Assembly: GCA_948442695.1 (NCBI GenBank)
Contig: CAOJSF010000003.1
Coordinates: 46,716-110,715 of the forward strand
From: an uncultured Clostridia bacterium
GTDB lineage: Bacteria; Bacillota; Clostridia; Christensenellales; UBA1242
Reading direction: 5' to 3'
DNA length: 64,000 bases
Numbering within the stretch: position 1 is the first letter of the stretch; every line of letters starts with the position of its first letter. A model generated the notes under the pieces. The model saw only the letters and a list, made by a program, of their open reading frames with translations. It made no database searches and had not been told where the DNA came from. The position numbers and the translations under genes were made by a program. This document shows, one piece after another, positions 577-9,964 of the stretch.

Positions 577-901
577 ATTCAAATTTACTTTTATATCAAA
601 TTTACTTTTATAATGATTTTATTCTCATTAACCAAAGTCTTTTATTTGCAAAAATTAATTTGATGGTGTTTAAATAAAAAATGGCATAATTTAGATAATT
701 TTGTTGAAATTTGCCACAACTTATCAAATTATAACGGTATTTTAGGAAAATTGAGAAAATTTATATAAAAAAGCAGAATAAACTCGAAAAAAGTAAAATT
801 AAATAATTGTTGTTTCTAAAATCTTGCAAGCAAAAATAAAACAAATTGTTCCTAAATTGTGTCTAAAAAATTAGTTTTAATAATATTAGTTACTAATAAT
901 T

Positions 902-1312
902 TTAATTATTTTTTTCTGAAACAACTTTTGTTAATGCATCTTGTAAAGTTTGTGAAAAATTTATATGCAAACTTTCGGCTTTATCATTTAACACTTTTGA
1001 TATATAAACTGTTTTTTTTATTGACTTGACCAAAGATTTTTTGTATTCATCATAGTTTAAATCTATTAAACTAACAAAATCAGATTTATTTTCTATTTTT
1101 ATCTCTGAAATATCAGATGCTTTTGGCATTTCTTTTTTTTCATATTCTATGAAATCAACCGCTAAATTGCCTATTAAATCTTTTGCCATATAAATTGCCT
1201 CTTGCAAATTTTCTCCACAAGTTGAATTATTTAAATCAGGAATAAAAACACTATACCCACCTTTCTCTTCTTTTCTAAAAATTGCTGGATAAATTAAAAT
1301 ATTATTTTTCAT
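902..1312 (-). CDS. HicB-family antitoxin-like protein
   Basis: The N-terminus YPAIFRKEEKGGYSVFIPDL..GENLQEAIYMAKDL matches the HicB/UPF0150 signature. The C-terminal TVYISKVLNDKAESLHINFSQTLQDAL resembles a ribbon-helix-helix tail. Confidence 0.6.
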   Translation of the reverse strand: MKNNILIYPAIFRKEEKGGYSVFIPDLNNSTCGENLQEAIYMAKDLIGNLAVDFIEYEKKEMPKASDISEIKIENKSDFVSLIDLNYDEYKKSLVKSIKKTVYISKVLNDKAESLHINFSQTLQDALTKVVSEKNN

Positions 1313-1340
1313 TTTCCCACCTTTTATTTTAAGTTAGGGA

Positions 1341-1483
1341 CTAAAATAAGCCCTGTCTTTTCAATTAATGATTTATGTTCTTGTCAATATATCCTTATTA
1401 CAAAACGGCACTAAAATTAAATTCTATTTATTCTCTTTTAAACATGTTATTCGAATCAACTTATCTATCCTCTTGTCAGCCAT
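1341..1483 (-). pseudogene. possible decayed hicA toxin remnant
   Basis: An ATG at 1483 gives MADKRIDKLIRITCLKENK, then TAG. Later frames read LVPFCNKDILTRT(TAA) and LKRQGLF, which resemble the HicA C-terminus (VP.H..KDL..GTL..ILKQAGL). The sequence is broken by stops and frame changes, and the central GSH segment is missing. Confidence 0.3.
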
Positions 1484-1756
1484 TTTCAAGAAGAACCTTT
1501 TTTAACTACATTAAGTTTTATTTTAAATAATAAAATACTCTGGTGATGTAAACTGCCTTATTTTCCTAGGTTTTACGGCATTTTAAATGAGTTAAAATTA
1601 AAATTTATAAAACTTTTATAAAAAACTTTATAAAAATGCTACAAAAATTATTAATTAAGAAACAAGTTATCTTTATGGTTGGTTTATTTTTAGATAGAAT
1701 AAGTGGACAAAGTTGCAAAATCTTTGCCCACTTATATTTTTTTATTTTTTACTTTA

Positions 1757-3190
1757 TTAGCAATATAATAGTTGATTTATTAAATTGCTTGCATTTTTAT
1801 CGGCTTCTTTTGTGTAGTGTGTGTAAATATTTAATGTTGTATTTGTATCACTATGTCCAGCTCTTGCTGATACTGTTTTTATATCCATACCACGAGTAAG
1901 TTGCATGGTAATATTTGTGTGCCTTAGCCCATGCGGAGTAATTTCTTTCAGTCCATTTTTTTGTTCAAACTGTTTTAACCATCTAAAAGTTGTTGCTCCT
2001 GCCATATTTGAGCCATCCCATCTTACAAATAGTCTATCGGTATTTGCCCATAAGTTGGCATATTTTATTTTTTCACTATCCCAAAATTTTTTGTAATCTT
2101 TTAATAATGTTACAACTCCACTTGGAATGCTAATTGTTCTGTTAGAATTTTTTGTTTTTGTATTTTTAGTTACAACCCCTATGCCACAAGCATATATACT
2201 ATTTCTTGAAATCGTTACTAGTTCTTTTTCAAAATCAAAGTCTTTCCATTCTAAACCTACCAACTCTGCGTTGCGAACACCCAAAGCAATCATTAAAGTA
2301 AATGCAACTTTTTTTCTAATATCTGTTTCATTGTTTATGCAATCTACAAAATGTTTTATAGTTTCTGTGTCATCTAATATTTCTTTTTTACCAGAAGAAC
2401 CTTTTTTAATAGGACGAATAAAATCACTAGAAGCATAATTAACACTAATTATACCTTGCCTTACTGCATCTCTAAGTATCGTATGTAGCATTATTTTAAT
2501 TGCATTATTTGAGCCTCTTGAATATGGAACTTGCTCGCTTTCGGCTTTAAAATAATCTTCAAAATTTATTTTTAAACCTCTACATATTTTTTTAGCCGTT
2601 TCCCTTTTTAATTTATTACCAACTTTATAAGCGACTTCTATGGTAGTATCAGCCAATTCACATAATTTTGCACAAGATTGAGTAGTTAGGTTTTTTGCAG
2701 TAACCAAATCTCTTATGCTTTGCTTCACGGTTATAGTTTCTTTTTTATGAGTTCGTTCGCATAGCCAATTGCAAAAGTCTTGTATTATAATTTGATTTAA
2801 ACCCCTTAAAGTGTATTTGCCTAATTTATCTTTAAAAATTTTTAAATAGCCTTTGCAACTATTATAATAAGAATAGCCTTGTTCGTGGTATATTAAAATA
2901 TCTTCTACCCACTTTTCAGCAAATTCATAAAATCCTATGTCTTCCATAGGCTTGTTTAAAATTCCATTTGAAAGCCTTTCAGTTTGTTCTTTTAAGTCTA
3001 ATTGACATTTTAGTTTATACGATTCAATTTCTTTTTTGCCCTTTAAGTGATTAGGTACTTTATATGTTTTAACTTTTTGTTTAAATTTTTTTGTTAAAGG
3101 GTCTTTATAGTTGCACCAAAATACAAATGAAAGTTCGCCTTTTTGATTATATCGTTCTTCTGTGTGCATTAAATCATTTTTATTCTTCAT
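1757..3190 (-). CDS. tyrosine recombinase / phage-type integrase
   Basis: C-terminal catalytic residues are present: HGLRHTNITMQL and ARAGHSDTNTTLNIYTHY. The track start at 3214 is a GTG. An ATG at 3190 with GAGG 6 nt upstream is the more likely start, and it overlaps the stop of the upstream xis-like ORF. All Trp codons are TGG. Confidence 0.9.
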   Translation of the reverse strand: MKNKNDLMHTEERYNQKGELSFVFWCNYKDPLTKKFKQKVKTYKVPNHLKGKKEIESYKLKCQLDLKEQTERLSNGILNKPMEDIGFYEFAEKWVEDILIYHEQGYSYYNSCKGYLKIFKDKLGKYTLRGLNQIIIQDFCNWLCERTHKKETITVKQSIRDLVTAKNLTTQSCAKLCELADTTIEVAYKVGNKLKRETAKKICRGLKINFEDYFKAESEQVPYSRGSNNAIKIMLHTILRDAVRQGIISVNYASSDFIRPIKKGSSGKKEILDDTETIKHFVDCINNETDIRKKVAFTLMIALGVRNAELVGLEWKDFDFEKELVTISRNSIYACGIGVVTKNTKTKNSNRTISIPSGVVTLLKDYKKFWDSEKIKYANLWANTDRLFVRWDGSNMAGATTFRWLKQFEQKNGLKEITPHGLRHTNITMQLTRGMDIKTVSARAGHSDTNTTLNIYTHYTKEADKNASNLINQLLYC

Positions 3191-3401
3191 CTGGTACCTC
3201 AATAATTTTTCCACCTAAAAATATTATAAGTGAATTGACATCAACTAAAATTTTGCTTGAATTAATTATGCAATCTATTTTTCCACTTTTGCATAATTGT
3301 CTAATAAATCACTCGCTTACTGCGGTATTTTTGTCAAGCGACCTTAATTCATCCATACAACCTTTTATGGTTTTTAATTCTGGCATAATTTTTTTAAACA
3401 T
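3180..3401 (-). CDS. excisionase-like small DNA-binding protein; needs TGA=Trp at codon 31, otherwise a truncated pseudogene
   Basis: An RBS (AAAGGAG) lies upstream of an ATG at 3401. Translation: MFKKIMPELKTIKGCMDELRSLDKNTAVSE[TGA]FIRQLCKSGKIDCIINSSKILVDVNSLIIFLGGKIIEVPDEE. The TAA stop overlaps the integrase ATG. The in-frame TGA is at 3309-3311, and the frame stays open after it. Confidence 0.5.
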
Positions 3402-3521
3402 ATTTTTTGCTCCTTTTTTTTATATTAATTTCATTTTTTAAAAAGTTCAAGGGTTTTGAAAGGTGTTTTTCAAGTTGTTTTAAGTTTGCCAAGTTTTTTT
3501 AGTAAAAGTATTATAAATGCC

Positions 3522-8634: not shown

Positions 8635-8720
8635 ATATACTCCTTTTATCTATTCAATCATAACATACAACTACATATTTTGTCAAACAAAACGAATAAG
8701 TGTTTACTATAAATAGATAA

Positions 8721-8756
8721 AAAATAAAAGTAAGTTGTTATACCTACTTTTATTTT
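8721..8756 (-). terminator. 12-bp perfect inverted repeat downstream of the Rep-like gene
   Basis: AAAATAAAAGTA at 8721-8732 pairs with TACTTTTATTTT at 8745-8756. The loop is 12 nt. Confidence 0.5.
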
Positions 8757-8824
8757 GAGTTATTTTATGGCTAACTACATTAATTTTAGCCGAGATTATT
8801 TGTGTTTTAACAATATAATCATAT

Positions 8825-9652
8825 TTAAGTATTATTTTGTTTATTCTCTACCATTGCTATATTAGATGTTTTAAGCCTTTCAACTAGCCTTTGCATAAAA
8901 TCTTTTTCACTAGGTAAATATATTTTATCCAAATAATATGTTAATTTATTATCATTATTTAAAAAGTAATGCCCATTTTCAAAAGTATTGTAGTCAAGTA
9001 CACCAATATATTCTTTGTATTGCTCTTCTAAAATACTATATAATAAGTCGTCGTCAATCTCAAATTCTGGAACATCAATATTTTTAAACCCTTGACTTCA
9101 AGTTATTATTCTTGCACCTATGGGGAAATAGGTATAAAAGCGATTGCCTTGTTGGATTGTATCATCTTTATATTTGGTAATATATTTTATTAAACCTCGT
9201 ATTTCATAAGCATTTTTAATATTGACAAATCCATAATCTCAAAACTTTTTAATATCATAATAACCTATTTTTAATTTTTCTTCATTTAATAATATTATAT
9301 GTATGTGGAAAAAGTGGCTTGTGCCTTGCACTTCAATAGCCCTTATATATTTAATATTGTTGCCATAGTTTCGCCTTATGCTTTTTATAAATTGTTTAAA
9401 GGCATTTAACACTCTATCAAACTCTATATAATGTTCAAAGGTAAGCGTAATTCATTTAGCAAAATAATTTGTCAAGTCCAGTTTATATAGTTCATACCTT
9501 TTGCGATTGATTGTTCTATTATAATCTTTTCTATCCATATTTAGTTTAGGCTTATCGCTACGCCTTAACCCATTTCACTTTTTATCTGCCTTTTCAGTAT
9601 TAAAATTTTTTGAAACAATAATCATTCCGTTTGCAAATTCAATTTTGTACAT
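8825..9652 (-). CDS. HUH rolling-circle replication initiator-like protein; needs TGA=Trp at 4 codons, otherwise a pseudogene
   Basis: It is absent from the ORF track. Reading from the ATG at 9652 to the TAA at 8825-8827 gives 275 codons. The only interruptions are TGA at 9575-9577, 9452-9454, 9239-9241 and 9098-9100. Motifs: K[W]ITLTFEH, SHFFHIHIILL (HUH) and F[W]DYGFVNIKNAYEIRGLIKYITKY (YxxKY). There is no in-frame TGG. Confidence 0.6.
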
Positions 9653-9930
9653 TTTATATTCCTCCGTTTTGTTGAGCAATGCTCGTATATAGTTTAGCCT
9701 CGCAAGAACATTATTTAAGACTACTTTATATTAATAAAGATTTTAGGTGCTTGTTCTAAAAAATATATAATAATTTTTATAAAAATATTTTACTGAAATT
9801 TAGAAAATTTAAATTAAACTACAAATTTTAGAAATTTTATATAATTTACACAAGTTGCAACTCAAATTAGGAAAGTTACACAAGTTATTTTAAAAAACAA
9901 AAGTTAAAATTTCTAGATTAATTAATAAAT

Positions 9931-9958
9931 AAAAAAACACCACAATATATGGTGTGTT
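9931..9958 (-). terminator. hairpin plus T-run following tRNA-Val
   Basis: On the minus strand, ACACCA..TGGTGT forms a 6-bp stem with a 7-nt loop, followed by T7. Confidence 0.5.
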
Positions 9959-9964
9959 ATTATT

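Follow-up and report, generated by a model that had tools for sequence, protein, structure and literature searches.

How does a mobile element fare in a bacterium whose genetic code would cut short the genes for its own excision and replication? The question is raised by a 64,000-nt stretch of DNA from an uncultured Clostridia bacterium (contig CAOJSF010000003.1, positions 46,716-110,715, forward strand), the whole of which is referred to here as the window. It contains an integrative element in which the gene for a replication initiator (Rep) and an Xis-like gene carry in-frame TGA codons. An earlier note on this DNA had claimed that only these two genes need TGA to be read as tryptophan, and that they use it exclusively; this was borne out, with four TGA and no TGG codons in Rep and one TGA and no TGG in the Xis-like gene. 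The same TGA/TGG split recurs in over 25 independently assembled related loci (labelled L001, L002 and so on for comparison with the window element), across two recombinase modules. The window copy is one of a family of 8-9 kb integrative elements with rolling-circle replication, integrative-plasmid- or satellite-like, carried by low-GC gut Firmicutes that use the standard code. Members of the family use TGA in two ways: as a stop in the genes for regulators and cargo, and as tryptophan in Rep, in the Xis-like gene and in a small open reading frame (ORF) that precedes an alternative serine recombinase. These last three are collectively termed the locked genes.

In-frame TGA codons in the Rep and Xis-like genes

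Between 8650 and 9900 the standard code allows no long ORF, and translation with code 4 opens a 301-codon frame on the minus strand (8828..9730) with four TGA and no TGG codons. The Rep gene (8825..9652, minus strand; 828 nt, 275 residues) runs from an ATG at 9652 to a TAA at 8825-8827, has a GGAGG ribosome-binding site and is open with respect to TAA and TAG. Its in-frame TGAs are codons 26, 67, 138 and 185 (9575-9577, 9452-9454, 9239-9241 and 9098-9100, respectively), and the standard code would leave a stub of 25 residues. The translated product matches the Pfam family PF23343 (REP_ORF2-G2P) with 57.6 bits against a cut-off of 27.8 (E = 1.6e-15) over residues 66-162, a region spanning two of the TGAs, while PHROG 3584 ("replication initiation protein") aligns to residues 6-250. 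Among 34 relatives, H116 and H118 are invariant and T69-L70-T71, Y157 and T159 are at least 90% conserved. With both the metal-binding motif and the catalytic tyrosine motif conserved, Rep is by sequence a rolling-circle initiator of the HUH (histidine-hydrophobic-histidine) type, for which nicking activity is predicted. Its distant relatives include the Reps of small rolling-circle plasmids from Firmicutes (24-33% identity), and its sole match in the GenBank phage collection is a microvirus Rep (24% identity).

Codon 138 is an invariant tryptophan in the 34 relatives. In the 12 lineages compared, this column is TGA in nine and TGG in three, and the remaining Rep TGA columns align with W, F or Y. 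A new Rep tryptophan codon, 241, arose as TGA from TTA. The ratio of nonsynonymous to synonymous substitution rates (dN/dS) is 0.10-0.17 for Rep overall; the TGAs divide the gene into five stretches, each of which gives 0.06-0.28 at a dS of 0.88. No internal TAA or TAG was found in the Rep copies read, except in four of them (L008, L009, L018 and L023) that stop 15 residues early. In these copies codon 261 has changed from AAA to TAA; they are otherwise intact, and the C-terminal tail of Rep seems dispensable.

The Xis-like gene (3180..3401, minus strand, 73 residues) has an AAGGAG ribosome-binding site and overlaps the start of the integrase gene by 11 nt. Its only tryptophan codon is a TGA at codon 31 (3309-3311), and the standard code would yield a 30-residue stub lacking the second helix. 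All seven homologues have W31, encoded by TGA wherever the DNA was read (at 66%, 90% and 100% identity), and in the Xis of L018 a TTA to TGA change has added another TGA, at codon 9. The gene shows a dN/dS of 0.18-0.22. No match to the protein was found in Pfam, NCBIfam or PHROG. An AF2 model (mean predicted local distance difference test, pLDDT, 78) shows a small winged helix, with the Xis of the mycobacteriophage Pukovnik as best PDB match; the statistics of this match are weak (probability 0.98, but E = 0.09 and TM-score 0.53-0.66). Based on the fold model and the position beside the integrase, we refer to the product as Xis-like, and its role in excision is putative.

The adjacent tyrosine integrase (1757..3190, minus strand; 477 residues from an ATG at 3190, or 485 from a GTG at 3214) matches Phage_integrase (PF00589) with E = 1.3e-24 over residues 285-469, and its NCBIfam matches to Xer-type families fall below the equivalog cut-offs. 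The earlier note had given it about nine tryptophan codons, all TGG; the exclusive use of TGG stands, and the count is eight, with no TGA. The homologue in L017, at 66% identity and dS 1.15, has nine TGG and no TGA, and integrases linked to Xis homologues retain 8-9 TGG codons. The integrase dN/dS is 0.21. To hold 8-9 TGG and no TGA at a dS of ~1.1 requires selection for expression in a standard-code cell.

In other copies the backbone is combined with an alternative module, which consists of a 62-residue ORF and a large serine recombinase (7310..9226 in L001 and L002, 9327..11322 in L010; also present in L034, L035 and L037). This recombinase integrates at the 3' end of tRNA-Asn, as seen in L010, L011, L034 and L035, and L001 ends in an unidentified tRNA 3' end. 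The 62-residue ORF occupies the Xis position and has a conserved in-frame TGA (dN/dS 0.12-0.21), while the serine recombinase has none. In the distant relative L015, an ORF of ~54 residues in the same position has one in-frame TGA and one TGG.

Taken over the window element, all five tryptophan codons in Rep and the Xis-like gene are TGA, and none of the 19 in the remaining genes is (Fisher's exact test, p ~2e-5). The codon counts upheld the earlier statement that the ORFs at 3642..4622, 4891..5235, 5248..5733, 5797..6303 and 6473..7354 use TGG only. Across the family, TGA makes up 83% of tryptophan codons in the locked genes versus 0 of 88 in other element genes, where the only TGAs are terminal stops and one truncated remnant. 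One such stop ends the p168 gene (5797..6303, minus strand, 168 residues, three TGG): the TGA at 5797-5799, followed by TAT TAA, is conserved in all relatives that carry the gene, so that TGA has both meanings within one element. Among the Lys, Glu, Gln and Leu codons of the locked genes, the share ending in A is 0.72-0.93, matching the 0.83 for TGA. This match, together with new tryptophan codons arising as TGA, suggests that decoding is efficient as opposed to leaky read-through. The base following the sense TGAs shows no read-through bias (G 9, A 7, C 6, T 3). These codon patterns show TGA to stand for tryptophan in the locked genes, and the substitution rates show Rep, the Xis-like gene and the small ORF to be under purifying selection along their whole length. 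In our reading, TGA costs nothing where Rep and Xis are translated and is forbidden where the other genes are translated.

The split is conserved among relatives at a dS of ~0.9-1.1. Seven Rep lineages with in-frame TGA, at 31-96% identity, have 2-5 TGA versus 0-3 TGG codons, and Xis in the family has 1-2 TGA and no TGG. Close Rep relatives (89-96% identity) occur in six contigs of metagenome-assembled genomes (MAGs) that are labelled as uncultured Eubacteriales, Clostridia or Christensenella; four of the contigs belong to the MGBC series. All four Rep TGAs are kept in L007-L012, L018 and L034-L038, and L010 has a fifth. The sister clade L001-L006 (75% Rep identity) has five TGA and one TGG, and five distant lineages (L013-L016 and L033, 31-35% identity) have 2-4 TGA mixed with 0-3 TGG; in the latter, tryptophan is written as TGG in the genes next to Rep, several of which have TGA as their true stop. 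The Rep of L032, a relative of higher GC content, has three TGG and no TGA. A survey of related elements had been proposed in the earlier note, and its outcome is that homologues in standard-code (code 11) hosts carry TGA, not TGG, at these sites.

Host code, element ends and cargo

The hosts decode their own genes with the standard code. Outside the element, the remaining 54 kb of the window carry genes usual for a chromosome, among them those for KsgA, TatD, GluRS, DnaB, TypA, TilS and a probable giant surface protein; KsgA, TilS, GluRS, DnaB and TypA are all intact. In the window and six related loci, 77 long flanking ORFs add up to 31,277 codons, among which are 188 TGG and not one sense TGA, and TGA is the stop of 18 of these ORFs; the TGA stop of TatD coincides exactly with the end of the Pfam profile. 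In each of L007-L012, the six MAG loci tested, a code-4 ORF fills a single gap between standard-code ORFs, that of Rep. Every locus with flanks (window, L007-L012, L018, L022, L026 and L034-L036) has standard-code flanks, and code-4 flanks were never seen. The possibility that the host itself uses code 4 was rejected, as no host gene gains a sensible extension from code-4 translation. On the 138-kb scaffold L034, which carries enolase and further housekeeping genes in the standard code, the gene caller left Rep uncalled, while short element-only contigs were called in code 4. Since standard-code annotation misses Rep and short contigs are called in code 4, such elements are easily missed or mislabelled.

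The ends of the element were located by homology to eight independently assembled insertions (L007, L008, L012, L018, L022, L023, L025 and L026), the flanks of which all differ from one another. This homology starts at 1512-1523 and stops at 9939-9950, which gives an element of ~8.4 kb (1512..9950) in place of the island of ~9.3 kb at 577-9964 proposed earlier. Its GC content is ~26%, compared with 30-40% in the remaining window. Junction alignment of the left end (1512..1540; …TTTTAAATAATAAAATA / CTCTGGTGATG…, the slash marking a crossover placed only approximately) shows a T-tract on the host side and a common core of the type TAATAA(T)AAA. On the right, the region upstream of Rep extends to the element end (9653..9950; …GATTAATTAAT / TAATAAAAAA, from junction comparison) and would represent a putative promoter or origin. 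A host terminator hairpin (9937-9955) abuts this end. At least eight copies lie at different A/T-tract sites, often with a terminator hairpin adjoining.

Insertion of the tyrosine-integrase form into A/T-tracts directly beside terminator-like hairpins is seen at the right junctions of the window, L012, L018 and L022. The hairpin in the window stands just beside a tRNA-Val gene of the host flank (9965..10040). This tRNA was considered as attachment site and rejected, as its 3' end has no direct repeat and other copies lie at unrelated sites; the closeness of the element to tRNA-Val is incidental. A HicB-like antitoxin gene (902..1312, minus strand) and an SDR (short-chain dehydrogenase/reductase) gene (1..576, plus strand) likewise belong to the host flank, outside the element.

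The element family moves, as shown by the many insertion sites and an assembled circular form. Two copies were found in one MAG, and L002, which answers the earlier suggestion to look for a circular form, is a circular contig with a 30-nt terminal overlap and a junction (attP) uniting both element ends. The overlap was read as a k-1 signature, assuming a Logan assembly with k=31. In L001, the integrated sister of L002, the same element end continues into a tRNA 3' end. Together, the many sites and the circular form argue against inert, locked-in copies.

The remaining element genes comprise regulators and cargo. A gene for a 326-residue putative regulator (3642..4622, plus strand; three TGG, no TGA) is divergent from the xis-integrase pair; the protein has an N-terminus that appears by eye like a helix-turn-helix (HTH), followed by a coiled coil, and no significant family match. 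The regulatory role assigned to it follows from position and sequence. Three small genes at 4697..5733 (minus strand) encode proteins of 56, 114 and 161 residues, the last Cys-rich; they use TGG only and have no match in Pfam, PHROGs, NCBIfam or PADLOC. An XRE-type HTH regulator of 102 residues (7713..8021, plus strand; Pfam HTH_3, E = 3.4e-5) has no tryptophan codons and is divergent from the cargo operon; its homologue in L016 has a TGA stop at the same position. The most conserved element gene is p191 (8059..8634, minus strand; one TGG), which encodes a 191-residue protein of PF27257 (precomputed Pfam match) and shows a dN/dS of 0.03. More than 1000 homologues at 50-58% identity occur in Clostridia, Bacilli and Bacteroidetes. 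Its AF2 model (pLDDT 91) gives Ogg-type glycosylases as top matches at low TM-scores, a weak match to an HhH-GPD-like fold.

A cargo module at 6473..7563 (minus strand) encodes a 293-residue membrane protein and a small protein of ~61-68 residues with an internal repeat. In L007, L012, L018 and L023 this module is replaced by a 325-residue protein with transmembrane segments and a coiled coil. The small protein (7357..7563, minus strand) contains the motif KGSxVYVYNE…G…TTV… twice, and this motif is kept in the distant elements L001 and L015. Cargo varies between relatives (6473..7563 in the window, 3156..4133 in L018, 13401..13964 in L034 and 1959..2666 in L001), and some relatives have an extra Macro-domain or HD-domain gene. 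Six proteins gave no match in Pfam, PHROGs, NCBIfam or PADLOC that would indicate a cargo function.

Two large host ORFs lie further to the right. A multi-pass membrane protein of 852 residues with a Lys/Glu-rich tail and no Pfam match (10511..13069, minus strand) sits in a stretch of higher GC content (~38-40%) just past tRNA-Val. The giant ORF (49423..63999, minus strand; at least 4859 residues) runs past the window end, has 37 TGG codons and a TGA stop, and is probably a huge surface protein, with weak Pfam matches to Flg_new_2 and YDG.

Possible decoders of the TGA codons

We lean towards the reading that the TGAs lock excision and replication at the level of translation, and that a UGA-to-Trp suppressor provided in trans opens this lock. 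In a host cell with normal decoding, release factor 2 (RF2) would terminate Rep at 25 residues and Xis at 30; the element would integrate and express its regulators and cargo, with no excision or replication. Full-length Rep and Xis would be made only where an efficient UGA-to-Trp decoder is present, and the TGAs would tie excision and replication to that state. The most plausible source would be a suppressor tRNA-Trp(UCA) from a TGA-recoded phage or other mobile element in the same cell. A TGA-recoded phage is the most plausible supplier because phages of this kind, with suppressor tRNAs, infect Firmicutes (10.1101/2021.08.26.457843). We infer the regulatory nature of the lock, the origin of the key outside the element and the supply of that key by a recoded helper phage. 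It is conceivable, and we put it forward tentatively, that the elements are satellites or hitchhikers that sense a helper via its genetic code and are active only in a phage- or element-induced code-4 translation state. The earlier note had proposed a TGA gate that needs a suppressor; such a gate is the best-supported explanation, while neither suppressor nor helper phage was found.

Several observations weigh against a lock opened by a recoded phage. A suppressor tRNA, which the earlier note had advised looking for, was absent: ARAGORN applied to the window and 39 loci returned host tRNA-Val, tRNA-Asn and tRNA-Arg only, with no tRNA(UCA). Scans of IMG/VR with Rep (by alignment and DNA pattern), p191, integrase and HTH regulator found no relatives, nor did scans of JGI metagenomes, and these searches brought no link to a phage to light. 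Pfam, PHROG and PADLOC revealed no terminase small subunit, capsid or portal-interaction genes in the element; as recognisable packaging or capsid-interaction genes are lacking, "satellite" is only an analogy. The flanks of L007-L010, none of whose 32 host genes ends in TGA, hint that this codon is perhaps weakly used in some hosts. As the tRNA scans covered the loci, not whole host genomes, a UGA decoder encoded by the host is possible, and one of the five element proteins with no assigned function could act on termination.

The strongest competitor, to which we give clearly less weight, is indeed decoding supplied by the host: carriers would read UGA as tryptophan through an extra tRNA-Trp(UCA), a read-through-prone tRNA-Trp(CCA) or a weak or regulated RF2. 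TGA would then keep Rep and Xis rare or tied to the physiological state of the host, and no helper would be needed. That no helper or suppressor was found in the scanned loci fits this account, as does the movement and circularisation of the elements in nature. The 0 of 32 genes ending in TGA in the flanks of L007-L010 points the same way; in the window host the figure is 9 of 33 (27%), including tatD, ksgA, tilS and the giant ORF, which argues against it. L012 has 4 of 12, and carrier species may differ strongly in their use of TGA stops. Further difficulties are the ~31,000 host codons without a sense TGA, and the four or five serial TGAs, over which leaky read-through would multiply down to almost nothing. 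Accumulation of TGA in locked genes at the neutral A-ending rate of 0.83 implies that decoding is efficient, but efficient decoding that is always on would let TGA spread to the integrase and cargo, where it is 0 of 88.

We consider it unlikely that the family lives in code-4 bacteria, as a two-host shuttle whose standard-code copies are integrated dead ends. In-frame TGA as tryptophan is normal in code-4 organisms, and the short element-only contigs could stem from any host. PF23343 is named after the ORF2/G2P replication proteins of single-stranded DNA phages, a group that includes the plectroviruses of Mollicutes. This account would nevertheless have to explain why code-4 flanks are missing from every flanked locus and why TGA serves as a real stop inside elements. 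A code-4 host under AT pressure should spread TGA everywhere, but none is seen outside the locked genes at dS >1, and selection for TGG cannot come from dead-end copies. The elements are still active in these hosts, as at least eight insertion sites and a MAG with two copies show. The related proposal of the earlier note, a recent mosaic from a code-4 lineage that is now locked in, has to be given up on similar grounds, as the split is conserved down to 31% Rep identity under purifying selection, and the family has its several insertion sites and a circular form.

A switch contained in the element itself is equally improbable. Here an unrecognised recoding factor, either a non-canonical suppressor RNA or an RF2-blocking protein, would be made on induction. 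Only ~35% of TGA-recoded phages have a detectable suppressor tRNA (10.1101/2021.08.26.457843), and several conserved element proteins have no recognised function. On the other hand, ARAGORN at default and relaxed thresholds and Rfam gave nothing credible in the element: the relaxed search returned junk of ~17% GC, a "tRNA-SeC(tca)" at 10343-10431 was rejected for its mismatched stems, and Rfam at E <= 1 found tRNA-Val only. Intergenic regions are short, Pfam and NCBIfam scans found no tRNA synthetase or release factor domains among the element proteins, and p191, the best-conserved protein, is glycosylase-fold-like rather than a translation factor. The lock also persists while cargo genes are swapped between relatives.

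Finally, decay of rep and xis into pseudogenes through TGG to TGA, a common G-to-A nonsense change in AT-rich DNA, or a chimeric contig is refuted by the absence of any other nonsense or frameshift in 275 Rep codons across 12 lineages (the late codon-261 truncation apart), by a low dN/dS (0.1-0.2) downstream of every TGA, by an invariant tryptophan column that alternates between TGA and TGG, and by the left junction of the window, which L027 and L029 assemble independently at 100% identity and which settles the question of a chimera that the earlier note had left to be checked. The family-wide split, the TGA/TGG alternation, the purifying selection and the insertion sites jointly exclude decay, chimerism and a locked-in code-4 import.

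Relation to known recoded and satellite elements

The proposed lock can be set beside four kinds of known system. Mobile elements of the code-4 Mollicutes, and presumably plectrovirus Reps, share with this element the use of TGA as tryptophan in a PF23343-type Rep. In contrast to these, the hosts here use the standard code, and TGA is confined to two genes and remains a stop in others. Integrative mobilizable elements and integrated rolling-circle plasmids of Firmicutes resemble it in combining an HUH Rep with a site-specific recombinase, in their interchangeable recombination modules and in a circular intermediate. Unlike integrative mobilizable elements, it has no recognised relaxase, oriT or coupling-protein genes. 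Stop-codon recoding is undescribed for either type in the literature searched, and the same search turned up no satellite, plasmid or integrative element in which TGA is recoded in particular genes.

Recoded prophages provide a closer parallel. Like the element described here, they (Garnet and Topaz, and the TGA-recoded Jade and Agate phages) are integrated in standard-code gut bacteria with low-GC Firmicute hosts. In standard-code hosts, recoded prophages keep their integrase free of recoded stops (10.1101/2021.08.26.457843, preprint), and recoding has been proposed as a lock between lysogeny and lysis, in which genes expressed after induction use the recoded stop (10.1101/2021.08.26.457843). 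Both systems have an integrase without recoded stops and post-induction genes with in-frame stops (here TGA as tryptophan). As the genes needed in the standard-code state avoid the recoded stop and those needed after induction use it, the split matches the recoded-prophage model. Unlike these prophages, the element is only 8-9 kb in size, has no recognised structural, lysis or packaging genes and no suppressor tRNA, tRNA synthetase or release factor of its own, and recodes only two genes per copy (Rep plus Xis or the small ORF), with TGA still a stop elsewhere. Stop-codon recoding has so far been described for phages using their own suppressor tRNA; here a small non-viral integrative element recodes only the genes with which it would leave and copy itself, and no key was found in it. 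If the key does come from a recoded phage, no other element outside the viruses would be known to make use of a code switch brought about by phages.

Phage satellites are the remaining comparison, comprising phage-inducible chromosomal islands and the Staphylococcus aureus pathogenicity islands (PICI/SaPI), P4, the PICI-like elements (PLE) and the phage-inducible chromosomal minimalist islands (PICMI). Like these, the element is an integrative island of small size that combines an integrase, an Xis-like gene and divergent repressor-like genes with a replication initiator of its own, and the PICI-like order of integrase, xis-like gene, divergent regulators and replication initiator is present within it. 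Dependence of excision and replication on another element, proposed here, is a further shared trait. Unlike known satellites, it has no recognised packaging or capsid-redirection genes and no identified helper. Known satellites sense helper proteins, as in the derepression of Stl by phage dUTPase. We know of no satellite that is gated by the genetic code of its helper, and none turned up in the literature searched. With two genes and five codons, the family offers a compact, testable system. If the lock is opened in the way suggested, the genetic code would be the signal by which one mobile element detects another, and helper detection would here proceed by a translational key in place of the protein-protein signal used by known satellites.

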